64,000 nt of DNA from NCBI GenBank assembly GCA_964459995.1, contig CAYWOR010000001.1, positions 145,328-209,327 of the forward strand. The letters run 5' to 3'. Below the pieces are notes generated by a model, which was not told the origin of the DNA, did no database searches, and worked only from the letters and a program-made list of their open reading frames with translations. Source of the stretch: an uncultured bacterium. GTDB lineage: Bacteria; UBP14; UBA6098. Positions 1 through 55,196 of this stretch are shown here, piece by piece. Position 1 is the stretch's first letter, and each line of letters begins with the position of its first letter. The translations under genes and the position numbers were made by a program.

Positions 1-3000
1 CCGGCGGTGTCGGTGGTTCTGGTATTAACTGGCGCGATTTCGAGATCACCTTCGCCATCGAGCACTGCGATCTCACTTGGGACACCATCCGCGTCAATCA
101 GAACGATCTCAACCGCGGTATCTATGTTGACGAAGAGAACAACGGCTACAACGCCAGGATGTGGATCAATTTCGAGGAATTGGTTCTTTGGCATCCCAGC
201 TGGGCCGGCTTGGTTCCCTTCCGTTCGGGCGATTTCGTCTATGTCCTCCTTACGAGGCTTCTCGACGACCCGGACTACGGTCAGCATTGGGGCGTTGATG
301 AGTGCATGCTCGGCGATTGGACGACAACCCCGCCATACTGGAATCAGATTTACTGGGTTATCGATACGATACCTTCTTATTCCGGCACTTGGGGCATCGC
401 GAACGGTGCCGATGGTAACTACGGAACCCGCAACACTCAGGACAACCATATTCCTGTGATGTGGGAAGTCGTCGGCGTGTGTCCTTACTACACGGAATAC
501 GCGTTCGACACTCTCGGTATCCTCCGTATCGACCTCGAAGGCCCGACCGCTCCGGATACTTTCTACTATCCGCCTCATCAGTGGGTTACTTCCGATAGCT
601 TCCAGATCATTACGTTGAACATCTACGACCAGATCGGTTGTTCGAACTACGATCTCGACGTTCAGGATCTTCTTCGTAACCGCGTTTCCGGCGTTTACTC
701 CGCTAGTGTCGATCAGGAAGCCCGCATCTGCGTTAACCTCAAGGTTCGCGGTTGCGACGGTAGCTGGCATCCCTACTATCACAGCGGCGCGGGATCAATT
801 CCCGACGGTCGTAACTTCTGCGTTGGCGAGCCCGATGCTGTCGGTCTCAACCTGACCAAGAAGTATAACGAGTGGGGCGTCAGAGTAACCTGGGATCCGT
901 ATCGCACGAATACCGATCAGGCGCACTTCCGCCCGGGCGACAAGGTCTGCGTTACCGTTTACGCTTGGGATAATGCTATCACCGACTGTCAGTACGAGCC
1001 CGGCACCGCCGGTCCGGTCAGCGGTTGGGATGATGACAATGATCCTTGGACCTCGCACCGCGATTCTGTCAACTACTCGATTTACTGCTCCGACGGTTCT
1101 CTCGCCCACTTCGTGGACGCCACCGTTCCGAGCCGTAACAGCGGTTATGACAGACTCGACCCGGATTATCTCTACTACGAAGTTTCGCATATCGCCCGTT
1201 GGACTTTCTTCGTTGATTGCCATGCGCCCATCTTCACTGGCGCCGATATGTCGCAGGTTTGTAACGATACCATGTATCTCTACTTCCGCGATGTGTCCGC
1301 CAATGTTCATGGAATGTATTGCGACAACTGGATCGCCAACATCGGCGTTCAGCACACCGAGCTAGTAGAAGGTGCCGACCTGCTTCTCATCTTCACGGAT
1401 ACGATGACCACCCCCGGCGTTACCTACGTCGATACGATCATCTTCCAGAATATGAAGCTCAGCGGCGGCGCTTATCCGCTGAACATTCACGTCGCTTATC
1501 ACGACATTCCGGGCAGAGAGTATCAGTATTACTATGCTGAACTCATCAAAGATCCGGCTGACGATCGCGGCGCTTATGTCCAGCTCTATGGCGACGGTTC
1601 CGAGGCGACCTGCCACTTCTTCCAGCCCTACGACCAAATTCGTTGGGAGCTTTATGCCGGCGACAGCCCGGATGTTCCTTGGTATCCCGCGACTCAGCGC
1701 ACCGTCTCTGGCGGACGCACCTATCGTTGGCACCATGGATTCGATTCCTGGAGCAACCCCGGCACATGGTTCATGAGCTGGCGCTATGGCAGGCATGACT
1801 ACACCGGTATTAATGTCGATACCCTCGACGGCCCGACCTTCTGGGAAGACACCTTCTATAACAACTTTGAGAACCCGAATTGGGCGCTTATCAAGGTTGA
1901 TAGTCTCCAGATCTTCTCTGAGACTTGGTTGTCCAAGGTTGGCTGGTTCAACGATGAGGCTTATCATGCGTTCATGTATCCGCCTCACGTTTACAACTAC
2001 CCGCCGGATCTCAAGGGTGACTACACCAATATCTGGCACGCTTGGATGGGCCGCTACCGCAACACCACCCCGGGTGGAATGACCCCGGTTCTGTTGTGGG
2101 AAGAAGGAAGCCCGAGCCGTATCTCTCCGATGCAGAGCCGCGACCCGTATGTCAACTTCTGGGTTAACGACCTTAACTTCATCGTCGCTGACATCTACAC
2201 CTGCACCGACTCGATCATTTGGGAATGCCTCGTCGGAACACATCCGGACGAAGACACTCTTCCGTTCCGCGTTCCTCGCGTAACGATTGATCTTTACAAT
2301 GCCGGACGTTCGCATGTGTGGACTATCGACGAATTCTACGATTGCCACTGCACGCCTTGCTTCATCAGCTACTATCCTTCGCGCACCGCTTGTGTCGATT
2401 GGGGTAGAATGCATGTCGGTCCGATCGATCAGACCGAACAGTGGCTCTACACGATTCGTAGAATCGATACTCTCGAAACTGACCCCGTCCTCGTTACCGA
2501 TACTATCGTCGGATGGCAGCATCTCGATAGCATTTCGGTCAGGTTGGAGTTCAATGTTCGCGAGCCGAACTACTTCACCGATGCCACCCATTTCACGAAG
2601 TATGTTTTCCGTTGGGATTATGTAGTCGATATGCAGCCGCCGACCGCGATATTCCGCGACCCGGCCGCTACCACCGGCTACGACGAGGTCAACTGTAACC
2701 TCATTCACGACTCGAACCATACTCTCAGGCTGAGACTCGAAAGCATCGTCGACGCTCATGTCGGTTGTGCTCCGGGCACTCTTATGGCCGATGGTTGGTC
2801 TTCCAAGTGGCCGATTCCCGCCGTTGCTCCGTCTTCCGATTGGGTCAAGTTCAAGTATGAAACGACTCCTCCGGTTGCCGCGAACATGGTTTGGAATCCT
2901 GCTACCCACTATCTCTGGTCGAATGAGTCCTTCGTCATCACCAACTGCGCTCTCGAGCTTAATGTTGCTGATACGATGACCATCGGAACCCCGGGTATCC

Positions 3001-6000
3001 AGATTTACCACGGCCTCAATCGCAGTGGCCCCGGATTCCCAGTTCCGTTGCAGACCACTCTCACGAGAGACACGATCTTCGTCGCCGATAGCGTTTTTGC
3101 CGAAGCTATCATTCAGGACCGTTTGGGCAACTGGACTCTCAAGACCAGCCGCAAAATGGCTCTGGACAATGGTCTTCCCGAGGTTAAGGGCTTCGCGCTC
3201 GCTACTCTCGGAATCGATACCGTCGGTTACGACTCTCTCGGAACCCCGATTCTCGGCGATGTGTACATGAACGATTGGGACGGCGCAGTCTTCAAACTGC
3301 CTTGGCTTGTTCCTGATCAGGACAGTCTCGTCGGAATCTACAACTTCGCTCCGGTTTGCACCGTTTATGTGAGGTTGTGGTTCAACGATAATATGGACAT
3401 GCGTGAAGCCGATCACCTTTACGGCCACATCGTTAGGTTCAAGCCGCACGGATGGACCCACTGGTTCCCCGTTCTTCCGCTTGAAACCGTCGGCGGTGGC
3501 CCCACCGGTCTTCGTTTCCCGCTTGCTCAGCAGTATGTCGATTACAAGAATATCGCTGGTGTTATGCCGAGTGCACGCCCGGATGCTTCCAGTGAAACTG
3601 ACCTTTCGCCCGTTATCCCCGGTGATGTCGAGGCTCTCGATGCCGGTTGGAACAGCGACCGCGAATGGGTTGGCTACATGGTTATCGCCGGCGGCGGCGC
3701 CATGGACGGTATCGGAACTCTCCGTGTTCAGGGATTCGATGACAACGCTGGAAACTATATGCTTCCGATCGAATACCCGCTTCGTATAGTAACCGGCGAA
3801 CCGAGATTCAAGATGGTTTACTGGCCGAGAATCGACACTCTGAATAATGCTCATGTCGATCCTTGGAGCGGTTTGCCGGATGACGTTCTCGTTCTCTCCG
3901 GTTGGAGCACTTCGGATCCGGTCCTCGGCGACTCGACCCGTTGCACCTTCTATCAGGATAACGATAGAATGAATCCGATCACCGCTTATTGGGACAACTA
4001 CCTTGCGGAGACCGATTCGGTTCGTTTCAGAGTATTCTGGCACGACACCGCTTGGGTTCCCGGCGCTCCTCTCACCGGTCATACTTTCCACTGGTCTGAG
4101 GACGATATGTGGTCGAGCAACATCTCTGTTTACAGAGACACAGCTTGGGTAGTTATGCCCGTTAGCGAACTCGATCTCTTGCACGAGTATTACACAACTC
4201 TTGGCGGCGCTCCTGTTGCCTACTCGAACAACGAGCTTTATGCAACAATCGTGTTCGAGGCCTTCAGCAGGTTCCGTCCGAGCAACCCCTACATCGCCGA
4301 TACGCTACTCAACGTTCGTATCGACAACCGTAGGCCGGATCCGCAGTTGACGACCCTCACCGGTGGTCAGATGATTCATGGTCAGCACACGATGCTTCCG
4401 TTCGGTTCGACCGATCTGAAGGTTTGCTGGCAGAATAATCAGGTCGAGCAGATCGATAAGATGTCCATCTGGCTCCATAGCCTCATAGATGGCGCTGATT
4501 ACATGCTCTTCCCGGCTGGCGGAACACCCGGACAGAGTTTCGGCGCTGTCGGAACATCTACTCCGCTTTACTACGATCCTGTCAATGGCGTTATCTGCCT
4601 CGACTACAGGAACCCGGCTGGTCTTCCGGCTGGTATGTGGACTCTGAGCTGGAAAGCCTTCGACGGTATTCAGGTCGTCGATACAGCGAGAGGTGGAACA
4701 ATACTGAGATACTGGCAGTATTACCACACCGATTGCGAATTCGACTTCTTCACCGACGATACGCTGACCATTCTTAGGCCTCCGTTCCTCGCTCGCGGCG
4801 ATAATCTCTACGACGCTCTAAGGAGTGTTGCGGACAATTATCCTGCAGTCATTGGCTCGGACGACATCTATCCGTGGTGGAATGTTGGTATGGAAGATAT
4901 CTGGCCGGATTGGCCGACCTTTGGTTGGATCGATACGGCGGCTATCAGAGCGGCTGGCCTGCCCGACCTCTGGAGAGTCGATGCTCTTCACAGAGTCCCG
5001 CAGATGGTTCCGGTTGTTCAGATTACCACCTATAATAACCCGGACTACAGCTCTGGTGTTCCGGATCCGCTCATGCATCCGTATGTCGAATCCGGCGGTT
5101 ACCCGGGCGACAGCCTCTACGTCCTGTTGGAAATGCTCGAGACCGATGTCAACGTTAGATACATCGACCTGAACATCAAGGATTACTGGGGTGGCAACAT
5201 CTCCGGTTCTAACCTCCAGATCAATGTCAGGCTCGATAGCACTCACGTTGTTCACTACGGCGATCGTTCCTTCTGGGTGTATAAGTGGACGGTCGATGAT
5301 CAGGACAACCGTTACGACGGTCTTGTTACGATCACCGCTTCCGAATACACTTACAGCCCGTCCACCAGCACGTGGAACTATTGGGATCACATTGCCTATG
5401 TCTTACTGGATACGGACGATCCGACCTACGAGGTTTCTATGATTAGAACCTCCGACTCTTCGGTTCCGAATATCGCCATCAACCCGATCGACTTCCCGGA
5501 TGAATCAAGAATCTGGGTGGTTAATGCGGACGAGTTCCTCATCAACCTCGATTGGGATCAGACGATATACGATCCGGCGGCTCCGGGTCACCCCGTCTCC
5601 TACCATAACTATGGCAGATACATCTACACTCGTCAGTGGGATCATTGGAGAATTTCCATCGACGGTGCTCCGAATTACGGCACCTACAGCGATGCGAACG
5701 ACCATCTCGAAGCCAGGCTCTGGGACAACGACCTCGATCCGTGGGACATTCATCATCCGTTCTGGCGTCAGCCGGACTACATGAATACCGCGATCACGCC
5801 GTCGTCTTACGATAACGCTTCGCCGATGTGGACCTTCAATGACAAGATCAGATTCTTTGCCGACAACGTCTATGCCTATGCTTGGGATGTTGCTGGAATA
5901 CCTGAAGGCCTCACGGCTCAGGGTGTTGCCTACATCCTCGGTAAGTCTCGCGACGCCGCCGGTAACGTCCTCGACTACGAAGAGGCGAGGATCAGCAAAT

Positions 6001-7445
6001 CGAAGGGCAAGATTGCTCTTATCGACATCGAACGCCCGACCATCGACACCGATCTCGTTATCGCCACCGGCGACAACCTGACCGCCTATGTCGGTGCTAT
6101 CTGGGACAACTTCATTGGCGACAACTTCACCAACGAGCTGGGTGACGGCTACGTTTACGTGATGGTTACCATCGAAGACACGATCCTCGTGGGTCCCTAC
6201 TGGGTGGATCCGAGCGGAGCTATTGCTACCTCCGGTTGGGGCGCTTACGGCCCGACTCCGGGTGACTTCATTGACCTCTGTGTCTATGACCTCGCAGGCA
6301 ACTATGTTTGCGTCGAAGTCGAAGTCGTTCCCGAAGTTCATTGCTGCACCTACAGTCTTTGCACCGATTGGAACCTCATCTCCATCAGCGTCAACCCCGA
6401 AACGCTTACTACGGCTGTCTTCGGTGGCGCTCCGGTTTACAAACTGGTCGGAGGCACCTATGTGCCCTACACCGGTATTCTTGAGCCGGGTGCTGGCTAT
6501 GCGGTTTACCCGCCGAGTGCAATGGAAGTTACTATCTGCGGCGCTCCTGTGACGTCTTTCGACGTTACCCTCAGTGCCGGTTGGAACCTGATTGGCGCTA
6601 CGTGGATGGATGTTCCGTTCACCGCTCCGGAGACCACTCCGGCTGGCGCGATCGACCCGACCGAAACTCGTTGGTATGAGTGCGGAGTTAACTATCACTA
6701 CACTAACGTTCTCGAACACTGCAGAGGCCACCTGGTCATGGTTACCAACCCGGCCGGTTGTGAGCTGAGTGTTCCGGGATCCCGTGGCGGCAAGGTCGTT
6801 TACACCGTCAAAGACGGTCAGTTCGACCCGCTGTTCACCGGCAAATTGGTTAGTGATAACCGCACCCTGACCTTCGGCGTTGCCGACATCGCCACCGCCA
6901 ACTTCGACCGCGGCATCGATCGCTACGCGATTCCGGCGCACGTTGGTCAGAGCGAGCTCGTTCTCGACGGCGGCATGGATGTCGATTACCGCACAACCGA
7001 TAGCAGGATCGAGTGGACCGTTAAGGCCACCGGTAACTACACTGCGACCTTCGAGAAGGAAGGCGACTGGGTCGTCTCTCTCGACGGAGTCCAGCTCGTT
7101 GACGGCGATGTCGTCACGATCACTTCGGGTTCGCACAAGCTGGTTGCCGACCGTGTCTCGGTTCCCGCGAACTTCGCTCTCGGTCAGAACCTTCCGAACC
7201 CGTTCAACGCAGTAACGGCGATCAAGTATGAGCTCCCGACGGACGCTACTGTAACCCTCGAGGTTTACACCGTCCTCGGTCAGAAAGTCGCTACGCTGGT
7301 TAACGGCGATCAGGAAGCCGGTTATCGCACCGTCGTTTGGGACGGAAACGATGACGAGGGTAGAGCTGTTCCGAGCGGAATCTATTTCTACAAGATTTCC
7401 GCCGGCGACTTCTCGGCGACTCGCAAGATGACCCTGATGAAGTAA
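1..7445 (+). CDS. Giant T9SS cargo protein, Trp/Tyr/Asp-rich, unknown function; 5' end lies outside the window (more than 2,450 aa in window)
   Basis: Frame 3 is open from nt 3, so the listed M at 159 is internal and there is no signal peptide at this N-terminus. The C-terminus carries a canonical type-A T9SS sorting domain (LGQNLPNPFNAVTAIKYELP...GIYFYKISAGDFSATRKMTLMK), then a stop and a stem-loop. No recognisable catalytic motifs. The long antisense ORFs (1362..4184, 5505..7460) are treated as shadows. Confidence 0.85.
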   Translation, partial: GGVGGSGINWRDFEITFAIEHCDLTWDTIRVNQNDLNRGIYVDEENNGYNARMWINFEELVLWHPSWAGLVPFRSGDFVYVLLTRLLDDPDYGQHWGVDECMLGDWTTTPPYWNQIYWVIDTIPSYSGTWGIANGADGNYGTRNTQDNHIPVMWEVVGVCPYYTEYAFDTLGILRIDLEGPTAPDTFYYPPHQWVTSDSFQIITLNIYDQIGCSNYDLDVQDLLRNRVSGVYSASVDQEARICVNLKVRGCDGSWHPYYHSGAGSIPDGRNFCVGEPDAVGLNLTKKYNEWGVRVTWDPYRTNTDQAHFRPGDKVCVTVYAWDNAITDCQYEPGTAGPVSGWDDDNDPWTSHRDSVNYSIYCSDGSLAHFVDATVPSRNSGYDRLDPDYLYYEVSHIARWTFFVDCHAPIFTGADMSQVCNDTMYLYFRDVSANVHGMYCDNWIANIGVQHTELVEGADLLLIFTDTMTTPGVTYVDTIIFQNMKLSGGAYPLNIHVAYHDIPGREYQYYYAELIKDPADDRGAYVQLYGDGSEATCHFFQPYDQIRWELYAGDSPDVPWYPATQRTVSGGRTYRWHHGFDSWSNPGTWFMSWRYGRHDYTGINVDTLDGPTFWEDTFYNNFENPNWALIKVDSLQIFSETWLSKVGWFNDEAYHAFMYPPHVYNYPPDLKGDYTNIWHAWMGRYRNTTPGGMTPVLLWEEGSPSRISPMQSRDPYVNFWVNDLNFIVADIYTCTDSIIWECLVGTHPDEDTLPFRVPRVTIDLYNAGRSHVWTIDEFYDCHCTPCFISYYPSRTACVDWGRMHVGPIDQTEQWLYTIRRIDTLETDPVLVTDTIVGWQHLDSISVRLEFNVREPNYFTDATHFTKYVFRWDYVVDMQPPTAIFRDPAATTGYDEVNCNLIHDSNHTLRLRLESIVDAHVGCAPGTLMADGWSSKWPIPAVAPSSDWVKFKYETTPPVAANMVWNPATHYLWSNESFVITNCALELNVADTMTIGTPGIQIYHGLNRSGPGFPVPLQTTLTRDTIFVADSVFAEAIIQDRLGNWTLKTSRKMALDNGLPEVKGFALATLGIDTVGYDSLGTPILGDVYMNDWDGAVFKLPWLVPDQDSLVGIYNFAPVCTVYVRLWFNDNMDMREADHLYGHIVRFKPHGWTHWFPVLPLETVGGGPTGLRFPLAQQYVDYKNIAGVMPSARPDASSETDLSPVIPGDVEALDAGWNSDREWVGYMVIAGGGAMDGIGTLRVQGFDDNAGNYMLPIEYPLRIVTGEPRFKMVYWPRIDTLNNAHVDPWSGLPDDVLVLSGWSTSDPVLGDSTRCTFYQDNDRMNPITAYWDNYLAETDSVRFRVFWHDTAWVPGAPLTGHTFHWSEDDMWSSNISVYRDTAWVVMPVSELDLLHEYYTTLGGAPVAYSNNELYATIVFEAFSRFRPSNPYIADTLLNVRIDNRRPDPQLTTLTGGQMIHGQHTMLPFGSTDLKVCWQNNQVEQIDKMSIWLHSLIDGADYMLFPAGGTPGQSFGAVGTSTPLYYDPVNGVICLDYRNPAGLPAGMWTLSWKAFDGIQVVDTARGGTILRYWQYYHTDCEFDFFTDDTLTILRPPFLARGDNLYDALRSVADNYPAVIGSDDIYPWWNVGMEDIWPDWPTFGWIDTAAIRAAGLPDLWRVDALHRVPQMVPVVQITTYNNPDYSSGVPDPLMHPYVESGGYPGDSLYVLLEMLETDVNVRYIDLNIKDYWGGNISGSNLQINVRLDSTHVVHYGDRSFWVYKWTVDDQDNRYDGLVTITASEYTYSPSTSTWNYWDHIAYVLLDTDDPTYEVSMIRTSDSSVPNIAINPIDFPDESRIWVVNADEFLINLDWDQTIYDPAAPGHPVSYHNYGRYIYTRQWDHWRISIDGAPNYGTYSDANDHLEARLWDNDLDPWDIHHPFWRQPDYMNTAITPSSYDNASPMWTFNDKIRFFADNVYAYAWDVAGIPEGLTAQGVAYILGKSRDAAGNVLDYEEARISKSKGKIALIDIERPTIDTDLVIATGDNLTAYVGAIWDNFIGDNFTNELGDGYVYVMVTIEDTILVGPYWVDPSGAIATSGWGAYGPTPGDFIDLCVYDLAGNYVCVEVEVVPEVHCCTYSLCTDWNLISISVNPETLTTAVFGGAPVYKLVGGTYVPYTGILEPGAGYAVYPPSAMEVTICGAPVTSFDVTLSAGWNLIGATWMDVPFTAPETTPAGAIDPTETRWYECGVNYHYTNVLEHCRGHLVMVTNPAGCELSVPGSRGGKVVYTVKDGQFDPLFTGKLVSDNRTLTFGVADIATANFDRGIDRYAIPAHVGQSELVLDGGMDVDYRTTDSRIEWTVKATGNYTATFEKEGDWVVSLDGVQLVDGDVVTITSGSHKLVADRVSVPANFALGQNLPNPFNAVTAIKYELPTDATVTLEVYTVLGQKVATLVNGDQEAGYRTVVWDGNDDEGRAVPSGIYFYKISAGDFSATRKMTLMK

Positions 7446-7463
7446 ACAGCCCAACTTCACAAG

Positions 7464-7597: not shown

Positions 7598-10500
7598 ATG
7601 TCCAGAGGCAAAATTACCTTAGTAGTAGCTCTTGCGCTTGCAAGTATGGTTCTTGCACAGAGTTGGAGTTTTACTTTTCAGGTCGAGCCCGTTCCGGGGC
7701 AGACACACGACCTTGAAATAGCGATGACTGCGGGAGCAACCGCAGGATATGACGCGTTCTTAGACGTCCCTTATTTTACGCCCCCCGATGGAAGGGGTGT
7801 TTTCTTCCCTCTTAACGATCCATTAAATCCCGCTTATACCAAACTCCAGAAGGATGTCCGCGGTATCGCACTCGGATCATATACCTATTGGATCGCAATG
7901 GACGAGGGATATTGGGGTCTCGATGACCGTATGGTTCGTTGGGATATCGACAATCTTCCCGATCCTGATATCTCCGGCAATCTTTGGATTGCTCCTATAG
8001 TTTATGGGACTGACCCTGCGACTCTCGATGAAGCTCTTTGGATTCCCATGAATACGGTCGAAGAATTCGGTTTCGGACCCACTCAGGAAGCCGCATTCAG
8101 GTTTATGCCTTCTGCAATGGTTGATACCATTGCTCCTTATGTTACCGGTTTCGATCCGGTTCCGGGAGAGGCTGGCGTATCCACAGCTAAGAATGTAAGA
8201 TTCGATGTCAAAGACGCCAACAGAGGCGTTGACCCCGCCACAATCGATGTTTGGGTTACCGTTGGCGGCGGAACTCCGGCTCATCTCGGACCTTCCGACA
8301 TGATTCTCGATCCCATCGTTGGCGGATATCGTGTAACGATTCCCCCGGTTGGCGGTGCTTGGCCTGAATCCACGATTATTAACTACACAGTTAATGCCTG
8401 CGATTTGGCGAGTCCTGCTAATTGCATGGATGTCGATACCTCAGTATCGTTCTTCACCCGTGTGATTCCGCCGGACATGTTCCCGCCCTATTTCGAAACC
8501 GCCTATCCGGCCAATGGTGCTACCGATGTCGATGTTACTTCCTGCGTAAGAATCGTCATTAAAGATTCTGAGAGCGGTGTCGATAGTAGCACAATAATCT
8601 TCCAGCTCAATGGAACAGCGATCCCGCATTCCGACCTTAACATCACTGAGCTTGGAGTCGGTTCGGATTGGTATCGCGTCGAATATTGCCCAACTTCCGA
8701 CCTCAACTATGGCGCTATCTATAATGTTAATGTTTACGCCGAGGATTTCTGGGGCAACGATGCTTCGATTACTTGGTCTTTCGTTACTGAAGAGGCGGAT
8801 TCGCTTCCCGAATTCGTTTATAATCTTCAAGCAATTTCGATTAGTGGAACCGATACCGCGAGAACCAATCTCTACATCGGCCTCGATAATCTTGGAACAG
8901 ACGGCTACGACGTCGGTCTCGATGTCCCGCAGTTCTTGTTCCCGGGTGCGCCGAGAGGTTATTTCCCGCTCATGGATCCGAGCCATCCCAGCGTTCCGGC
9001 CCTTTCGAGGGACATTCGCTCGACTTCCCATGGAATCAAAACATGGACAGTCGATATGTATAGCCCTGTTGGAACTTTGAAACTTACATGGGATAGACTC
9101 CTTCTTCCGCCGATCGGCATGTTCAGCTTCGCTGTTGTCGATAGCGGTTCCACACCGAGCGCTTGGACCTCGATGTCCACCTATGGTGAGGTAAGCTTTA
9201 CCTCCTCCCAGCAGGTTCTCATTCGCTTCCTCCCGACCTTGGTCGATCCTAATCCTCCTGTCGTAACAAATGTTTCGATGGAAGGATCCGGCCCGGGCGG
9301 AGTTGGCTATGATCCAGCAACACCGCTTTGCTTCAGCGTTGTGGATTATGAGTCCGGCGTCGATATAAGCTCTGTGGCAATTTCTATCGATTATGTCGAT
9401 ATCGACCTTGCGGAATTCGCGACCACTCCTCTGTCGAATGGTTACCGTTTCTGCTATACCCCGTCTCCGATGTGGTCGCCGAACACGACCTACAGAGTCG
9501 AGGTTCAGGCCGCGGACAATGCCATTCCGGCTAACGAAATCGACCCGCCCTATGTTTGGAACTTCTCGACCGGCCCGGCTGGTTGCGCTCCGTTGTTCGA
9601 GCTTCCCCTTACTTTCACATGGGGTGCTGGCGCGGATGAAAACGAGACGATCATTTTCGGAACCCACGAGGGTGCTTCCCCGGGTTATGATGCCGGTCTG
9701 GATCAGATTCAGCCTCCGCCCATCACCGCCGCCGGCTTCTTCTTCACTTGCGGCGATGCGGCTCCGGCAGACAAACTGATCAAGGACCTTCGCAATCCAT
9801 GCGACCGTCCGAACATCTGGCAGGCTTCCAAGAGAAATCTGCTTACCTCGCCGAATGTTACTGTTACATGGCCGACTTCTCCGGTTTTCGCGGATACTTC
9901 GTGGCATATCTACTACAAAGTTCTCGGATTGGGTGTTACCCCGCCGACCGCTGTTGACAGCACTTGGACCCGCATGAATGTTGGCGATGAAATCGTTTAC
10001 AATGCCAACTCGAATTATCTCTATGTCGGTCTCGGCTATATCGGAACCACAATCGAAGTCTTCAATATCGAAGGCGATGTTGCGATTGCCGGCGCTCCCG
10101 ATAACAGCGGAATCCGTGTTTACCTCAACGGCGGCACTTTCCGCACGACCAATGCGGCTGGCGAATACTCCTTCGCGAACATCCCGCTTGGAACTTATAA
10201 CTTAACATTCTGGGACCCGGCTGGCGAATACTGCGCGCATCCTGATATGGATTCGATCGTTGTGGTTACCGGCACTGTTCCCGATGCCACTATCGATGTT
10301 CCTACCTATCATATGCTCCCCTGCGGAAGCAGAAGAGTTTATGGTGTCGGTTCGGTTGCTGGAACGCCTACTCAGTGGATCAACGTGAAACTCACGAATC
10401 TCGGCGATCTTTCCGAATCCACAATTCCGACCAACGCTTCGGGAGCTTACCAGTTCCTCGGCGTTGTTCCGGGTGATTACATGCTGACCGCTTCCTATTC

Positions 10501-12364
10501 TGGATATCGCACTTGGGACACGACCTTCACGGTCGGTCTTACCGATGTCAACATAAACTTCAACCTGACCGAAACGACGGTTTTGGTTACAGGAATGGCA
10601 AGACTTAACAGCGTTCCTTCGCCTGGTATTACCATTAACGGATCAGCGGTTGCAACGCCGACGACGTCAATCGCCGACGGTTCTTACTCTGTGACAGCAA
10701 ATATCGGCGGTGGAAACATCTGTGCAAGCTATCCCGGTTACGAGACAGTTTGTCAGTTTGTTACCGTTCCTGAAACAGGTTTGACCGGTGTTGATTTCAA
10801 TCTTCTACCGTTGCCGGTGGATGTTATTGTCTCGGTCGATCTCGGTTGCGAAACCGTCAACATGTCGGGTGCTTCCGTTACGATGTCCGGTGTTGGAACA
10901 GAAATTACCCCCGCCAGCGGCAATGTCAGATTCGATGATGTCGCCCACGGATGGTATAATTTCACCGTTTCCGCTCCGTATCATGCAACGGTTGTTGTCG
11001 AAAGCGTCTATGTCAGCGCTGACACCACGATTAACGTTGCTCTCTGCTGTCTCGACGCCGTCGAAGATTTCGACGCTGATCCGGACAGTGTTGCACGCCC
11101 GACTGCCGATCCGCTGACCATTGCGCTCAGCTGGACCGAAGCCGGAACTTCCTGCTGTGATCCGGATTCTTATCTGGTTTACAGGTCGTTGGCACCGTTC
11201 ATTAGCACCACTGCCCCCGGCGTTACGAGAGTCGCTTCGGTTCCCTTCGGAACCACGACCTATGTCGATGCGACAGTTGCCGATGGCGTTCGTTACTACT
11301 ACGATATCGTCGTAGTCTATGGTTGCCCGAGCAATTATTCGAGACTTGCCGGCAATGTTAACGCGGCAAGCGCTTATACACCCGACCCGGCCGATTATCT
11401 GGTTATCGACTGGGACAACGGTGCGACCCCAACCAACGGCGGCACGATGGGTGTCGGCGAATGGTGGGTTAATATGCTCGGTTCCAGTGCGCTCGGTCTT
11501 TCGGCTGTTGTCAGAACAACCGACGATTCGCATAGCGATCCGCTTGCGGGCTATAACCTCAATGACTATGACTTGGTCGTTCTCGCGCTCGGTATCAACG
11601 ATGCGGACAACACCGTTCTTCCTACTGCGGCTGTTGCCAAGCTCGAAGCTTACAGAGCGATTAGCGGCAAAAAGATGATCATCGAAGGTCCCGATTTCGG
11701 TGCCGATTACAACGCAACCACTTTCTTCGGCAACCTCGGCCTTGCCTTCGTTCATGACGGCGCGGCTGACTTCAACGTCGATTGGTTCTATGCCACTCCG
11801 ACTTTGACGAATGCATCCTTCCCGATCATCTTCGATTACAACGACAGTAGTTCTGCTGACCATTTCGTCGATATCCTTAATTCTCCGGGTGTCTTGACAA
11901 CGAATGTCGCCTGGGATCAGGATTCGGTCTATAGGACATTCTTCTACAATGGCCCTTGCCAGACCATCATCTCGACGATTTATCTCGGCGGTATCGTTAA
12001 TTCGAGCTATCCGTATGTGCAGTCGCGTGCGGCTTCCGGTTATCTCTGGAAGCTCGGAATCGCCAACACCGGCATTTATCAGGTCGAAACGAAGCTCCCG
12101 AGCGATTTCGCGCTCGCGGGCAACTATCCGAACCCCTTCAACCCGGTTACCACGATCGAATTCCAGCTCCCGAGAGATTCTCATGTGGACGTTTCGATCT
12201 ATGACATCACCGGCAAGAGGGTTGAGACTCTGGTCGATGAAAGGCTCGAAGGCGGCGTTTACAAGGTCGCTTGGAACGCCAACAACATGCCCAGCGGTGT
12301 TTACTTCGCTCGCATGACCGCAGGTGAGTTCTCCGCAACTCACAAGGTTATGCTCGTCAAGTAA
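7598..12364 (+). CDS. Giant secreted T9SS cargo protein (1588 aa): N-terminal repeated GYD/GLD modules, 4 carboxypeptidase-regulatory-like beta-sandwich domains, Fn3, alpha/beta pre-CTD module, T9SS CTD
   Basis: SD AAAGGGG 7 nt upstream of the ATG. Signal peptide MSRGKITLVVALALASMVLAQS. CarbopepD_reg-like repeats (e.g. ...GEYSFANIPLGTYNLTF...). C-terminal LAGNYPNPFNPVTTIEFQLP...GVYFARMTAGEFSATHKVMLVK. A strong terminator follows. Confidence 0.9.
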   Translation: MSRGKITLVVALALASMVLAQSWSFTFQVEPVPGQTHDLEIAMTAGATAGYDAFLDVPYFTPPDGRGVFFPLNDPLNPAYTKLQKDVRGIALGSYTYWIAMDEGYWGLDDRMVRWDIDNLPDPDISGNLWIAPIVYGTDPATLDEALWIPMNTVEEFGFGPTQEAAFRFMPSAMVDTIAPYVTGFDPVPGEAGVSTAKNVRFDVKDANRGVDPATIDVWVTVGGGTPAHLGPSDMILDPIVGGYRVTIPPVGGAWPESTIINYTVNACDLASPANCMDVDTSVSFFTRVIPPDMFPPYFETAYPANGATDVDVTSCVRIVIKDSESGVDSSTIIFQLNGTAIPHSDLNITELGVGSDWYRVEYCPTSDLNYGAIYNVNVYAEDFWGNDASITWSFVTEEADSLPEFVYNLQAISISGTDTARTNLYIGLDNLGTDGYDVGLDVPQFLFPGAPRGYFPLMDPSHPSVPALSRDIRSTSHGIKTWTVDMYSPVGTLKLTWDRLLLPPIGMFSFAVVDSGSTPSAWTSMSTYGEVSFTSSQQVLIRFLPTLVDPNPPVVTNVSMEGSGPGGVGYDPATPLCFSVVDYESGVDISSVAISIDYVDIDLAEFATTPLSNGYRFCYTPSPMWSPNTTYRVEVQAADNAIPANEIDPPYVWNFSTGPAGCAPLFELPLTFTWGAGADENETIIFGTHEGASPGYDAGLDQIQPPPITAAGFFFTCGDAAPADKLIKDLRNPCDRPNIWQASKRNLLTSPNVTVTWPTSPVFADTSWHIYYKVLGLGVTPPTAVDSTWTRMNVGDEIVYNANSNYLYVGLGYIGTTIEVFNIEGDVAIAGAPDNSGIRVYLNGGTFRTTNAAGEYSFANIPLGTYNLTFWDPAGEYCAHPDMDSIVVVTGTVPDATIDVPTYHMLPCGSRRVYGVGSVAGTPTQWINVKLTNLGDLSESTIPTNASGAYQFLGVVPGDYMLTASYSGYRTWDTTFTVGLTDVNINFNLTETTVLVTGMARLNSVPSPGITINGSAVATPTTSIADGSYSVTANIGGGNICASYPGYETVCQFVTVPETGLTGVDFNLLPLPVDVIVSVDLGCETVNMSGASVTMSGVGTEITPASGNVRFDDVAHGWYNFTVSAPYHATVVVESVYVSADTTINVALCCLDAVEDFDADPDSVARPTADPLTIALSWTEAGTSCCDPDSYLVYRSLAPFISTTAPGVTRVASVPFGTTTYVDATVADGVRYYYDIVVVYGCPSNYSRLAGNVNAASAYTPDPADYLVIDWDNGATPTNGGTMGVGEWWVNMLGSSALGLSAVVRTTDDSHSDPLAGYNLNDYDLVVLALGINDADNTVLPTAAVAKLEAYRAISGKKMIIEGPDFGADYNATTFFGNLGLAFVHDGAADFNVDWFYATPTLTNASFPIIFDYNDSSSADHFVDILNSPGVLTTNVAWDQDSVYRTFFYNGPCQTIISTIYLGGIVNSSYPYVQSRAASGYLWKLGIANTGIYQVETKLPSDFALAGNYPNPFNPVTTIEFQLPRDSHVDVSIYDITGKRVETLVDERLEGGVYKVAWNANNMPSGVYFARMTAGEFSATHKVMLVK

Positions 12365-51086: not shown

Positions 51087-54000
51087 TTATTTTATAAGGA
51101 CGAGTCGTGACTGAGTTTGCCTTCCGCCACATTTGAGCACGGCGAAATAAACGCCGCTCGGCATCTCGACCAAATCGGAGGACATGCCGTCCCAAACAGC
51201 GCTGAATTTCCCCGCCGAAACAATTTCGTCGGCGAGATTCACGATATGTCTGCCGTTGATATCGTAGATATCGAGCTTGATTTTGCCGGGCATATCGATG
51301 TCCAGTGTGAGTTTACAGCTCGAGTTGAAGGGGTTCGGCGACACATGAAGCGCGATTTCGTTTGGAAGCTCAGCGCCTTTTTCCTCTACAATCGGCGGGT
51401 TTGGCGGATTGTAGCTCTCATCGAGAAGGAAATTCACGATTGCGGTAAGCACGTGCATTCTCGTCGAAGGCGAAGAGGGGGAATTCGAATCGATCATCGA
51501 GCCGATATAGACGCTTGACAACACGGTGCGATAGTTGTGCAACCTGCGATAAACCATGCGCAACGGGCTGGAAATCGGCGGCGGGCTGTCCTGAGAGAAC
51601 ATTGCCCAGTTGGTGCCCTCGATGCTCGTGTCGTTGTCCCACTCATCGATTCTGTGATCGGCGGCGCTCATATAGTGGTATTCCATGTCGATAGCGCCGG
51701 TTCTGAAGAAAGAGGTATCCTCGCCGCGAATCCGCGAAACGTTGCCACTCGATGCGGGATAGCCATCCTCCACGAACGCCGCGCCGAAGAGGTTAAATAA
51801 TCTCCTGCGCTGATCCGAGGCCATCACCGAGCCGAAATCGTAGCCGAAATCAGCGCCCTCGCAATAGACCCTTCCGCCGGCGGCGATATAGGTCGCTAAT
51901 CTGTTGACACTCTGGAAGTTCGGCAATGTGTTGTTGGCATCATCGATGCCATTGACCATAAACACAGCGCGGTATTTGAAGAGGTCGTAGGAGTTGATGT
52001 TCTGATCCTGAGTAGTCTTTATTATTCTAAGGTCGCTGAAGGCGTTCAGATAGTCGTAAAGGAATTGGTCTTCAGGGCTATCTCCGCCATTAGCGAGAAG
52101 AGCGCTGTTATCGAAATCCCAAATGAGTATATCGGGATAGGTCGAATCGGGGTTCATCCAAACCAATACCGGCCCGACTTTTTCGCTTTCGCCGAGGTCA
52201 TACACTGCCGAAACAAGATAGTTATATGGCAGGTAATTCGTTCTGCCCCATTCCACGAAGGCCGAATAGGGGTCAACCACGAACCCAACCAAAGTATCGT
52301 CTGAGAAAACTACTCTGCGGTAAACATTGTAACCCATCAGAGTTCCGGAGCCGGGAGTGGGTGAGTCCCAATCGAGAACAGCACGGTTGGGATAGTTGCC
52401 ATGCCCTGTGAGATTGCGTGGAGGATTAAGCTCGCCGCTGATGAGCGAAAGACGAACATCCAAAGTGTCCTCCGGTTGTTCGAGAGCGAATTCGACATCG
52501 AGGGTAACATAGCTAACTCTCGAGAACCTGACTAGATAGGCATCGTAGGGAATCTCGACGAAATTGTAGCGTCCGCCAGCATTTGTGAAAGCGGGGGGGA
52601 TATCCGTGCCGACAAGCTCGACCATAGTTCCGGCGAGCATCGGTGGATCGCCTTCGAGAGTAACGGTTCCGACGAGATTGCCGATGTTGCGAATCAGGGT
52701 GAAATCTTCGGTATGCTCGAAATCTTCGACGAGGATGTTGCGAGTAACCGTTTGATAGAACCTCTTTGAAACCTCGATTATGTATTCGCCGAATGGGACT
52801 ATCTCGAATATGTATTCGCCGTCGATATCCGCGAAGGTTGTATCGTCGCCGAGAACAATCATCGTGCCCTCCGGCAAGCCGCCGTCTTCGCACTCGATCA
52901 CTCCGGAAACGCTTCCGAAGGCCGGCACGAGATAGGGGTCGTAGATGATATCTTCGTTAATTAGGATATAGGCCGTATCGGAGAGATATCCAACTGCGGA
53001 GGTTATAACCATGCGCTCCGATGTTGAATAGGGTATTTCACAAAGGTTATATTCGCCATCCGCGCCGGAGACGGTTTCTCCAACACCGACAACTTCGATA
53101 ACCGCGCCTTCGACGACGCCGTCATCGGTGAGAACCGTGCCGGAAAGGCAGAAATTCGGCGGCACACCGCGTGAGAAATGAATCAGCAGATTTCCGCCGC
53201 TGATGATGTCGATTCTGTCGGTGGTGCGCATATTCTGCCATGTGGTGTCTTCGGAGATAAGCCATGCGATATGGAAACTACCGTCCTCGGGCAACCCTTC
53301 GGGATTCCAGCTTATCCAGTTCACTCTGCCGCCGAGAGCGCTGATTCTGTTCAGCATTGCCGACCAATGAAGGTCGTATTCGAGCGAAGAGCGGATGTCC
53401 CTCGTGAGTTGGTTCCAGAGCGAATCTGGTGTTGTGAAGAAGCCATAGGGGACATCTCCCGGCACGGGCGGGGGCATCTGCTGGTCGAGGCCGTAGTCGA
53501 AATAGTCCGTGCCGTGCGGATCCGCGCCGAAAAATAGCTTGAAATGGCGAAGCGGTTCGCCGGGTTGGGAGGTCCAAACGATAAGAGAATCCATCCATGT
53601 CGGGGTAAGGAAATAGCCGGTAGTGAAATGCCAGTCATATTCTGTAACATTCGCGGGGTCGGCTAAGTCCGCCACCGTAATACTGCAATCGATTCTCGTC
53701 ATCGGCGGGAAATCATCGGGCGGAGTGTAGTTCACGAAGGTCGTTCCACTGGAGGCCGTAACCACGATGTCGTCGGTAACATCCTCGCCTCTGACCGTGA
53801 GGCTAATCGAGGAGATATCGATACCGCTCTCGGCGTCGGTCATGGCGACCTTTAGGCCGGTGGAAACCGCGACTCCGGTTTCGGAGTGTCCCGGAATCGT
53901 ATAAACAATTCTCGGGGCGGCGGTGTCGCCGGAAAGGCTGACGGTTTTTATCCATACCTGTCTGCCCGGGCCGAAACTGACATGATCGATTTCCCTCATG

Positions 54001-55196
54001 TCCTGCCATTCGTCGTCGGTGGGGTAGAAGGGCGGGAAGGTGTAAGCAACGAAGCACCCTTTATCCGAGGGCAGGCGATGCTCCTCCCATTTCACACCAA
54101 TAACCATATCGACATTCCCGAAATGGATATTCCATAAGTCCATAATCACCGACGCATTGTGAATGTCGCGTGTCAGCATATTATAGAAAGGATAACTCGG
54201 ATCGCTAAGCGGGAAATAGGAATAGAAAGCCGATGGCGGAGCGACCGGGAAAACGATGTCCAATCCCAAATCGAAGCCGTTCGATGCGGAAAGGTCAGCG
54301 CCGAGAGAAATCTGTTTGAAGGTCGTGTCGGTGCCGAGGGTGCTCGTTGTAAATGTAACGAGCGGAACTTCCCAAAGAACTGGCATAATTCCGTAACCGG
54401 TGCGAAAAGCTATTACATCGGTCGTTCTGTTCGCGGGGCTTGCGTTGTCCGAAGCACCGGCAATGACCGAAAACCAAGTTTCGCCTTCCAGAAATACCGG
54501 AGGTTCGTAGATTACTCTGTAACCATTGGCGATGGGGGTTAAGGAGAGCATCTCCGAAACATTCACGCCATTGACGGTGAGAGTAATCGAAGCCGGGTTT
54601 ATTCCGCTTCCGATGTCGGTAACATCGAACCGAATATCAGTGGTAACCGGGACGCCGGTGGTGCCATCGACCGGGTTCCAATTCGAGATGACCGGGTCGT
54701 CGCCGGGAAGGTAGCCATGCGGAATATGGACTATGTCCAGCACCTGCGAAGGCCAGAAAGATACCGTGCTTGTGGTCTTCATGTTTACCCACTCGGTAAC
54801 TTCGAGGCCGAGATAATGCGCGCCGAGGAAGAAATCCCCCGGCGGGAGCAGTTCGCTCGACCACACAGCGTGAAGTGGCGAGTAAAGCGAGTTCAGAACG
54901 GCTCTCCACATGACGCTGTCCTCGCTGTCTTCGCGGATATCGGTAGTAAGCTTATCGATGAATGGGTTCAGCGGGTCGCTGAGCGCGAAGTAGGCGTAGG
55001 GCGGCGACGGCGGAGCGATGGGCATTACGACATCCATATCGTCGTAGCCGTCCAGAGCGGCTGGATTCCTGCCGAAGGTGATGCTTAGCGTATCCGTGTT
55101 CGAGATGAGCCGGATATCCGTCTGCCAAGCCTCGGCCAGAGCGGTTCCCATCAGAATGACTGCAATAGAGCAGACAACAAATAATAATCTTCTCAT
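51087..55196 (-). CDS. Giant secreted T9SS cargo protein (1369 aa), paralogue of 7598..12364 and 55291..58947
   Basis: The track ORF (to 55385) is trimmed to the ATG at 55196 with a GGGGGAG RBS, giving the signal peptide MRRLLFVVCSIAVILMGTALAEA. Three GYD/GLD-type N-terminal modules, three CarbopepD_reg-like repeats, Fn3, the alpha/beta pre-CTD module and a T9SS CTD (LHVSPNPFNSSCKLTLDI...SGVYFAVLKCGGRQTQSRLVLIK). Confidence 0.85.
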   Translation of the reverse strand: MRRLLFVVCSIAVILMGTALAEAWQTDIRLISNTDTLSITFGRNPAALDGYDDMDVVMPIAPPSPPYAYFALSDPLNPFIDKLTTDIREDSEDSVMWRAVLNSLYSPLHAVWSSELLPPGDFFLGAHYLGLEVTEWVNMKTTSTVSFWPSQVLDIVHIPHGYLPGDDPVISNWNPVDGTTGVPVTTDIRFDVTDIGSGINPASITLTVNGVNVSEMLSLTPIANGYRVIYEPPVFLEGETWFSVIAGASDNASPANRTTDVIAFRTGYGIMPVLWEVPLVTFTTSTLGTDTTFKQISLGADLSASNGFDLGLDIVFPVAPPSAFYSYFPLSDPSYPFYNMLTRDIHNASVIMDLWNIHFGNVDMVIGVKWEEHRLPSDKGCFVAYTFPPFYPTDDEWQDMREIDHVSFGPGRQVWIKTVSLSGDTAAPRIVYTIPGHSETGVAVSTGLKVAMTDAESGIDISSISLTVRGEDVTDDIVVTASSGTTFVNYTPPDDFPPMTRIDCSITVADLADPANVTEYDWHFTTGYFLTPTWMDSLIVWTSQPGEPLRHFKLFFGADPHGTDYFDYGLDQQMPPPVPGDVPYGFFTTPDSLWNQLTRDIRSSLEYDLHWSAMLNRISALGGRVNWISWNPEGLPEDGSFHIAWLISEDTTWQNMRTTDRIDIISGGNLLIHFSRGVPPNFCLSGTVLTDDGVVEGAVIEVVGVGETVSGADGEYNLCEIPYSTSERMVITSAVGYLSDTAYILINEDIIYDPYLVPAFGSVSGVIECEDGGLPEGTMIVLGDDTTFADIDGEYIFEIVPFGEYIIEVSKRFYQTVTRNILVEDFEHTEDFTLIRNIGNLVGTVTLEGDPPMLAGTMVELVGTDIPPAFTNAGGRYNFVEIPYDAYLVRFSRVSYVTLDVEFALEQPEDTLDVRLSLISGELNPPRNLTGHGNYPNRAVLDWDSPTPGSGTLMGYNVYRRVVFSDDTLVGFVVDPYSAFVEWGRTNYLPYNYLVSAVYDLGESEKVGPVLVWMNPDSTYPDILIWDFDNSALLANGGDSPEDQFLYDYLNAFSDLRIIKTTQDQNINSYDLFKYRAVFMVNGIDDANNTLPNFQSVNRLATYIAAGGRVYCEGADFGYDFGSVMASDQRRRLFNLFGAAFVEDGYPASSGNVSRIRGEDTSFFRTGAIDMEYHYMSAADHRIDEWDNDTSIEGTNWAMFSQDSPPPISSPLRMVYRRLHNYRTVLSSVYIGSMIDSNSPSSPSTRMHVLTAIVNFLLDESYNPPNPPIVEEKGAELPNEIALHVSPNPFNSSCKLTLDIDMPGKIKLDIYDINGRHIVNLADEIVSAGKFSAVWDGMSSDLVEMPSGVYFAVLKCGGRQTQSRLVLIK

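Follow-up and report, generated by a model that had tools for sequence, protein, structure and literature searches.

Introduction

Proteins that are cargo of a type IX secretion system (T9SS) are exported and may be anchored at the outer membrane through their C-terminal ends. Repeated β-sandwich binding modules (Cleaved_Adhesin, PF07675) are found inside such cargo in the gingipains and HagA, and in Tannerella forsythia the genes tfsA and tfsB are encoded side by side. The products of the latter, TfsA and TfsB, are themselves large T9SS cargo proteins that form the S-layer of the organism, a surface layer dependent upon the T9SS (PMC4175972). The subject of this report is a repeated module in four large proteins, referred to as A, B, C, and D, that are encoded within a stretch of 64,000 nucleotides from an uncultured bacterium (GenBank assembly GCA_964459995.1, contig CAYWOR010000001.1, positions 145,328 to 209,327 of the forward strand). 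This whole stretch is hereafter called the window. The four proteins resemble TfsA and TfsB in being large, sorting-domain proteins encoded by adjacent genes (D-A and C-B in the window) and conserved as a set.

The motif that recurs in these proteins marks an independently folding, all-β extracellular domain of ~150 residues that was previously unannotated. No match to it was found among the known protein families and solved structures searched, and it could well be given a domain entry of its own. Its most likely function would be that of a surface-displayed binding or assembly module.

Results

The repeated module

An earlier note, made from the DNA letters, had drawn attention to a motif beginning with G[YF]D that recurs three times in the gene for protein A, three times in that for protein B, and once in that for protein C. 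Each of the peptides quoted in it was found at its place, those of protein A (residues 49-89, 436-475, and 696-733) all lying within nucleotides 7700-9900 and those of protein B at residues 50-89, 307-347, and 565-603. A scan with a hidden Markov model (HMM) led to the same count. The copies are labeled according to their host proteins as A1-A3, B1-B3, and C1. The single copy in protein C is more divergent and is without the G[YF]D part, with the PP...FF...D-x-R segment and the Trp strands retained. When ~160 residues flanking each peptide were aligned, the similarity was seen to extend throughout, and the full unit around the motif comprises 150-165 residues in place of the 100-250 proposed before. 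The Trp-containing strands, which had been described as an element following the module, belong to the module itself. The common pattern is an N-terminal Trp hairpin followed by F-G-x-D and by the loops rich in Asp and Pro; next come D-I-R and a pair of strands that contain Trp, and then L-P and D-M.

The sequence identities from copy to copy, as determined with BLASTP, are 23-34% across 110-165 residues. In a leave-one-out analysis, the omitted copies scored 53-105 bits with HMMs built from the remaining ones, and 200 shuffled versions of each copy all scored ≤8.1 bits. When the seven-copy HMM was used for a six-frame scan of the whole window, exactly seven regions were matched, the next match having an E value >1.

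An eighth copy, absent from the earlier note, is located in protein D directly upstream of the sorting domain, and is both shortened and degenerate (…LTFGVADIATANFDRGIDRYAIP…DVDYRTTDSRIEWTV…). Within the window it scores 14 bits, with an independent E value (i-E) of 9e-4, using an HMM built from 49 aligned family modules that include the window copies. D orthologues from six other loci display a module match at the same position with i-E values of 7e-6 to 1.7e-11. In addition, an hhalign comparison of the D-type alignment with the module alignment gave a probability of 98.3% (E 1.7e-14, 117 columns). Given this support from the orthologues and from hhalign, all four proteins are judged, from their sequences, to carry the module: one degenerate copy in D, three in A, one in C, and three in B.

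Residue conservation was counted over 303 module instances, and is given here in the numbering of protein A. The family signature can be written as W…L-x-F-G-x-D-x2-A-T-D-G-[FY]-D-x-G-[LI]-D-x3-P-x-P-P-P…[YA]-F…D-P-x2-P…L-x2-D-[IV]-R…W…W…L-P…G-x-F…D-M. G428, D438, D472, and W498 are each conserved in 95% of the instances, followed by D442 (94%), P444 and R474 (88% each), M526 (87%), W483 (81%), P449 (80%), and P448 (71%).

Predicted structure and comparison with known families

Two copies were modeled with AlphaFold2 (AF2). The model of A2, based on a 49-sequence alignment, has a predicted local distance difference test score (pLDDT) of 94.6 and a predicted template modeling score (pTM) of 0.87, and contains 10 β-strands. 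That of B1, from a 31-sequence alignment, has a pLDDT of 95.3 and a pTM of 0.88. Both models are all-β, with 9-10 strands and one short helical turn. The signature-bearing loops, which comprise 35-40 residues, are modeled with pLDDT values >90. As can be seen in the A2 model, the well-conserved residues D438, D442, P444, PP448-449, D472, R474, and W498 lie mostly in or beside these long ordered loops, and not in the strand cores. Foldseek searches of the PDB with both models gave nothing at E≤0.001, the best E values being 0.08 and 0.087 with query template modeling (TM) scores ≤0.38. Likewise, nothing was observed in BFVD at E≤0.001 (best E 0.025, TM 0.56). On the basis of these comparisons with the PDB and BFVD, the predicted structure may represent a new fold.

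The Pfam-A library (24,736 models) and NCBIfam were scanned in several ways. With full-length A, B, C, and D no family was matched over the module, all matches falling outside of it. The seven excised window copies matched zero families at E≤10, and across the 49 aligned modules nothing consistent was observed at the same threshold, with only scattered single matches at E≥0.012. Ten small family proteins showed no Pfam match over the module at E≤1. Profiles built from 7 and from 49 sequences gave no significant match to PDB sequences.

Three extracellular domains that accompany the module were considered as its possible relatives and rejected. Matches to Big_5, an immunoglobulin-like (Ig-like) domain, fall between the modules, and hhalign gave a probability of 0.2% when the module was compared with 23 aligned Big_5 spacers from between modules. 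Cohesin matches in family members P0047, P0060, P0069, and P0089 sit elsewhere in those proteins, and the probability of the module against the cohesin domains of family members is also 0.2%. A diverged CarboxypepD_reg domain was ruled out by the domain positions and by hhalign probabilities of 0.2-0.3% against the neighboring repeats. The positive control, a split family, scored 100%.

The family beyond the window

When 1.84 billion cluster representatives were scanned in full with HMMER, 1418 proteins were matched at E≤1e-3, of which 311 reached E≤1e-10 and 37 reached E≤1e-30. A word-indexed search with the seven-copy profile had matched only two small proteins. When repeated with a 9-sequence profile including those two it returned 0 matches, and negatives from this search do not mean absence. 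The counts out of 151 that follow refer to the best 151 matches of the HMMER scan, which contain 287 module instances at 1-6 per protein. The first module begins ≤45 residues from the N-terminus in 115/151, a homologue of the T9SS sorting domain is found at the C-terminal end in 113/151 (most of the others being contig-end fragments), and a simple heuristic identified a signal-peptide-like N-terminus in 137/151. There are 21 clusters that consist only of a signal peptide, one module, and a sorting domain. Directly abutting tandem copies are observed in 21 proteins, with arrays of up to 6 copies.

The domains that accompany the module in 41 multidomain members include cohesin (7/41), dockerin (2/41), fn3, PKD, LTD, cadherin-like, and HYDIN-type Ig domains, and the 25 Pfam families that most commonly co-occur with it in these members include 0 glycoside hydrolases or lyases. 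Among 5 large members there are one subtilase and one β-helix protein.

Note that in two members, P0111 and P0150, the C-terminus is formed by a hydrophobic stretch and, after it, a tail rich in Arg (…LWFVRRRS and …WFMRRRRHGSVG). These tails look like PEP-CTERM-type sorting signals rather than a T9SS sorting domain, and the module would therefore not be strictly tied to one anchoring system.

With regard to sequenced genomes, a sub-alignment of the family matched 6 loci in a scan of GTDB, and the genomes with the family include two Zixibacteria metagenome-assembled genomes (MAGs) and several MAGs classified no further than "bacterium". A scan of the GTDB genomes with protein A alone matched no genome, and a scan of viral contigs for relatives matched none. 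The gene neighborhood of one single-module protein, P0002, holds only housekeeping genes and was uninformative. The contigs bearing the sequence of the window come from Joint Genome Institute (JGI) samples 3300033169 and 3300033172, which are from an anaerobic digester in Wageningen (table in PMC10159854).

The earlier note had envisaged a β-module without a named domain, specific to the T9SS cargo of one lineage, and had suggested that its novelty be checked against Pfam/InterPro and by Foldseek. The all-β character is reproduced in both high-confidence AF2 models, and TIGR04183, the T9SS type A sorting-domain model, scores above its cutoff of 23 bits in every host protein. Pfam-A, NCBIfam, and PDB sequences give nothing over the module. 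Indeed, neither check, the former carried out with Pfam and NCBIfam and the latter on the AF2 models against the PDB and BFVD at E≤0.001, produced a confident match. The idea of lineage specificity had to be abandoned: with 1418 representatives at E≤1e-3, Zixibacteria genomes included, the family as judged by homology is not narrowly lineage-specific.

The host proteins and their gene set

The coordinates of the four proteins, the modules, and other features are listed in Table 1. The N-termini of A, B, and C display a charged stretch followed by a hydrophobic stretch ending in A-Q, A-E-A, or A-Q-E, and are thus signal peptide-like. In protein A the signal peptide is followed by a module, two Big_5 domains, a second module, an Ig-like domain, a third module, CarboxypepD_reg repeats, an unannotated domain of ~245 residues, and the T9SS type A sorting domain. 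Protein B has three units of a module plus an Ig-like domain between the signal peptide and the CarboxypepD_reg repeats, after which come an unannotated domain and the sorting domain. Protein C contains a signal peptide, one module, an Ig-like domain, CarboxypepD_reg repeats, ~320 unannotated residues, the unannotated domain shared with the others, and the sorting domain. Protein D, the T9SS cargo protein whose gene lies immediately upstream of that for A, scores 36.8 bits with TIGR04183.

In locus L026 (2-14026), on a related metagenomic contig, orthologues of the four genes follow one another on a single strand in the order D-A-C-B, with amino acid sequence identities of 56, 45, 46, and 54%, respectively. 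A D-A or a C-B pair is also present in L006, L018, L021, L024, L027, and L028. In the window, ~39 kb of sequence with ordinary chromosomal genes separates the D-A pair from the C-B pair, and the two pairs are encoded on opposite strands. Given that the cluster is contiguous in L026 but split in the window, a rearrangement is implied.

The three-module proteins among the best matches (n=23) fall into two conserved architectures that differ in the gap between modules 1 and 2, which is ~210-230 residues in the A-type and ~97 residues in the B-type. Module orthology is specific to position in 22/23, 21/23, and 19/23 of these proteins for positions 1, 2, and 3, respectively. This position-to-position matching indicates that the triplication is old and that each position has been separately maintained. 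Among orthologues, identity is even along the whole proteins, and that of the modules is similar to that of the spacers. A hypervariable tip was sought by strain-level and orthologue-level comparisons, and none was found.

Table 1 Positions of the host proteins, module copies, spacers, and sorting domains within the window (nucleotides; module scores are for the HMM and, where given, for the leave-one-out analysis)
Feature	Position	Strand	Remarks
Protein D	159..7445	+	5' end cut by window; full length 3132 aa on public contig
Eighth module copy, in D	~6819..7148	+	shortened and degenerate
Protein A	7598..12364	+	1588 aa; identical protein on public contigs
Module A1	7655..8140	+	A aa ~21-182; core nt 7742-7864; HMM 174 bits; leave-one-out 59.5 bits
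Ig-like Big_5 spacer between A1 and A2	8483..8788	+	best Pfam Big_5 stretch, aa 296-397
Similar Ig-like spacers in A	8144-8482, 9266-9571	+	putative; ~100 aa
Module A2	8792..9262	+	A aa ~398-556; core nt 8903-9022; HMM 194 bits; leave-one-out 105.5 bits; modeled
Module A3	9572..10063	+	A aa ~659-822; core nt 9683-9796; HMM 170.7 bits; leave-one-out 53 bits
T9SS type A sorting domain of A	12125..12352	+	TIGR04183 41.2 bits; Por_Secre_tail 42.2 bits
Protein B	51087..55196	-	1369 aa; public gene calls agree
T9SS type A sorting domain of B	51099..51341	-	TIGR04183 28 bits
Module B3	53166..53618	-	HMM 160.7 bits; leave-one-out 67.8 bits
Module B2	53907..54398	-	HMM 208.7 bits; leave-one-out 104.7 bits
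Module B1	54687..55145	-	HMM 181 bits; leave-one-out 92.7 bits; second copy modeled
Protein C	55291..58947	-	1218 aa
T9SS type A sorting domain of C	55303..55542	-	TIGR04183 39.2 bits
Module C1	58390..58887	-	divergent; HMM 159 bits; leave-one-out 63.7 bits

Other regions of these proteins are also unannotated. A second conserved region of ~250 residues directly precedes the sorting domain in A (residues 1257-1500, nucleotides 11366-12097, + strand), B (residues ~1013-1275), and C (residues ~856-1125). It displays 27-32% identity among the three proteins, has neither a Pfam match nor a PDB sequence match, and is probably another undescribed domain. In protein C, the ~320 residues from 536 to 855 (nucleotides 56383-57342, - strand) are likewise without a Pfam match. 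The sole Pfam domain in protein D and in its full-length orthologue (L024:910-9765, 2952 residues) is the T9SS sorting domain, such that ~2,850 residues of this presumably secreted protein, rich in Trp, Tyr, and Asp, are unannotated.

Antisense open reading frames (ORFs) of 488-651 residues overlap the giant genes (5505-7460, 8441-9907, 10805-12343, and similar ones, the three given all on the - strand). Because signal peptides, sorting domains, and the other domains are all found in the sense frames, these ORFs look like non-coding shadow frames of compositionally biased genes. Elsewhere in the window, a 931-residue protein (36595-39390, - strand) matches DUF6754 over its C-terminal 255 residues (E 3e-112) and is unannotated over ~670 residues, and a 671-residue protein (21268-23283, + strand) contains BNR/Asp-box, YCF48-like, and sortilin-Vps10-like β-propeller repeats.

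Discussion

The interpretation that we favor, tentatively and with something short of even confidence, is that the module serves in binding or assembly and that it does so with a partner belonging to the surface layer of the same cell. According to this scheme, the signal peptide would export each protein across the inner membrane, and the C-terminal sorting domain would take it through the T9SS and across the outer membrane, after which the protein would stay tethered to the cell surface by its C-terminal end. Because T9SS cargo can be tethered in this manner, the modules of A, B, and C, interleaved with Ig-like spacers, would end up in a distal, N-terminal position. The best-conserved residues are predicted to lie in or near ordered loops rather than in strand cores, and for this reason the module is read as a binding or interaction domain and not as a passive spacer. 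A function of its own is also suggested by the minimal proteins, the N-terminal preference, and the position-specific orthology. The conserved set of three aspartates, one arginine, one tryptophan, and several prolines would suit contact with a glycan, Ca2+, or a protein. The likely partner would be found in that layer, in the form of the sister proteins or of a glycan at the surface, and a structural Ca2+ site is possibly present. An assembly of this type would be comparable to the Tannerella S-layer, which is built by paired T9SS cargo proteins. Such a partner is favored by the conserved gene set, the position-specific module orthologues, and the even conservation. Together with the lack of strain-level hypervariability, the gene set and the even conservation also argue for surface assembly over a variable adhesin.

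Several observations weigh against this interpretation. Within orthologues the modules are no more conserved than the spacer domains, and the conserved Asp, Arg, and Trp residues may form a buried salt-bridge latch rather than an exposed site. The copy in D adjoins the sorting domain, and is thus proximal rather than distal. The module is also found in enzyme-bearing and in very different architectures, which general ligand binding would fit at least as well as a role in a lattice. No T9SS machinery (SprA/Sov, PorU, PorV, PorK-N) turned up when the ten largest of the remaining ORFs in the window were examined, and so it is the sorting domain by itself that points to secretion and tethering. 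With regard to the fold, the statement that none is known applies to Foldseek comparisons of the predicted models with the PDB and BFVD, and the C-terminal half of the module gives weak fn3-like signals (E 0.24 in sequence, TENCON at E≥0.15 in structure).

A bolder proposal would be that the module has a β-sandwich topology new to the PDB, and that a T9SS-dependent surface layer, constructed from the four proteins D, A, C, and B, has the module as its signature unit of assembly or attachment. This we consider unlikely. If true, the hosts would be uncultured anaerobic bacteria related to Zixibacteria, and the module would be a functional counterpart of SLH domains or of TfsA/TfsB, evolutionarily unrelated to them.

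Asp, Arg, and Trp are typical of sugar- and Ca2+-binding sites in lectins, and the invariant residues of the module are of these types. It is possible, if doubtful, that the module is, as the earlier note had suggested, lectin-like, serving as an adhesin, or that it resembles a carbohydrate-binding module (CBM), its Asp/Arg/Trp loops binding an external carbohydrate or a particle surface. Tandem or tip-displayed copies might then provide avidity for substrates or for other cells in the digester or sediment, an extension that is to be held with the same reserve. The distal N-terminal location in 115/151 proteins, the arrays of up to 6 copies, and the 21 single-module display proteins are all consistent with such a role. 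The same is true of the shuffling of the module into adhesin-like architectures, occasionally with a subtilase or a β-helix, as occurs with accessory binding modules. No CBM or lectin family or fold was matched, however, and 0/25 of the commonest co-occurring families are glycoside hydrolases or lyases. Moreover, the host proteins in the window belong to a conserved, syntenic, and evenly conserved set, and do not have the appearance of variable adhesins.

That the module is simply a passive spacer, a β-sandwich bead that lengthens the stalk and whose motif only stabilizes the fold, is quite unlikely. It is true that the module is always found in the company of Ig-like and CarboxypepD_reg domains of the stalk, that in orthologues it evolves at the same rate as they do, and that its Asp/Arg pairs could conceivably act as a salt-bridge latch inside the domain, keeping the Pro-rich loop on the sheet. 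The 21 clusters composed of a signal peptide, one module, and a sorting domain would make no sense for a spacer, however, and a spacer would explain neither the strong preference for the extreme N-terminus nor an orthology specific to module position. The concentration of conservation in the long loops also speaks against it.

Independent of these readings of function is the question of whether the module is new at all. It is distinctly improbable that it belongs to a known superfamily (elaborated fn3 or Ig-like domains or jelly-roll CBMs, for example) from which it has diverged so far as to be missed by HMMER and Foldseek. Weak fn3 signals do occur in the C-terminal half. The best match of any profile to a PDB sequence was to the fn3 domain TEN-D3 over module positions 84-157 (E 0.24), and one of the two models gave Foldseek matches to TENCON/fn3 (E 0.15-0.5, TM 0.24-0.30, ~75 columns). 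The BFVD entry mentioned above (TM 0.56, E 0.025) might also be taken in this sense, as might the weak likeness of the A2 model to the β-sandwiches of cypovirus polyhedrin, its top match in the PDB (E 0.08, TM 0.34). The polyhedrin match was not reproduced with the second model, for which the top matches were the sigma-1 receptor, a GH30 β-domain, and fn3, and it is treated as non-significant. Indeed, none of the matches is significant, and the top ones differ between the two models. Nor did Pfam or NCBIfam provide a consistent match at E≤10 over 49 modules, and the hhalign probabilities against the neighboring Ig-like, cohesin, and CarboxypepD_reg domains do not exceed 0.2-0.3%.

Finally, the chance recurrence of a low-complexity motif, suggested by its richness in Pro and Asp and by the biased composition of the host proteins, is ruled out for all practical purposes by leave-one-out scores of 53-105 bits versus ≤8.1 bits for the shuffles, by the six-frame scan, by ~150 residues of similarity that take in non-biased strands, by the 1418 family members, and by the high-confidence AF2 models.

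If confirmed, the module would constitute a new, well-delimited family that has a clear signature, is modeled with high confidence, and numbers about 1400 clusters at 50% identity, and it would annotate some 450-490 blank residues in each A- and B-type protein. In a group of uncultured bacteria living in anaerobic digesters and sediments, the four-gene cluster may encode the principal structure of the cell surface. Two models with pLDDT values of ~95 and no neighbor in the PDB or BFVD make the module a reasonable target for structure determination and a possible new fold, and the minimal proteins, with only a signal peptide, a module, and a sorting domain, would be easy objects for binding work. 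Nothing known about type IX secretion is overturned by this family.

Among the known systems, the closest in location is Big_5 of the SbsA type (PF13205), whose extracellular β-sandwich beads alternate one-to-one with the module in the same proteins. The two differ in that the profile-profile probability is 0.2% and in that the module is ~50% longer, with ~40 residues of conserved loops. Cohesin (PF00963), the partner of dockerin, is likewise an extracellular, protein-binding β-sandwich, with ~140-150 residues, and both cohesin and dockerin co-occur with the module in the same proteins. Its HMM matches lie outside of the module, however, hhalign gives 0.2%, and no cohesin was found among the Foldseek matches. 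The fn3 domain shares weak sequence and structure signals with the C-terminal half (~75 residues), whereas nothing in fn3 corresponds to the N-terminal hairpin or to the signature loops, and the structural matches are limited to E values of 0.15-0.5 and TM scores of ~0.25-0.3. Cleaved_Adhesin and the jelly-rolls of CBMs and lectins gave no Pfam match at E≤10 and were not observed among the Foldseek matches, and, unlike Cleaved_Adhesin and CBM-type modules, the module described here is rarely attached to enzymes. As for TfsA and TfsB, their likeness to D, A, C, and B is one of description: lattice formation by the latter is purely inferred, and the hosts are uncultured and non-Bacteroidota-like. 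In summary, the family described here, unannotated until now and without a structural neighbor in the PDB or BFVD, is of a familiar kind, that of the extracellular β-sandwich modules carried by T9SS cargo.

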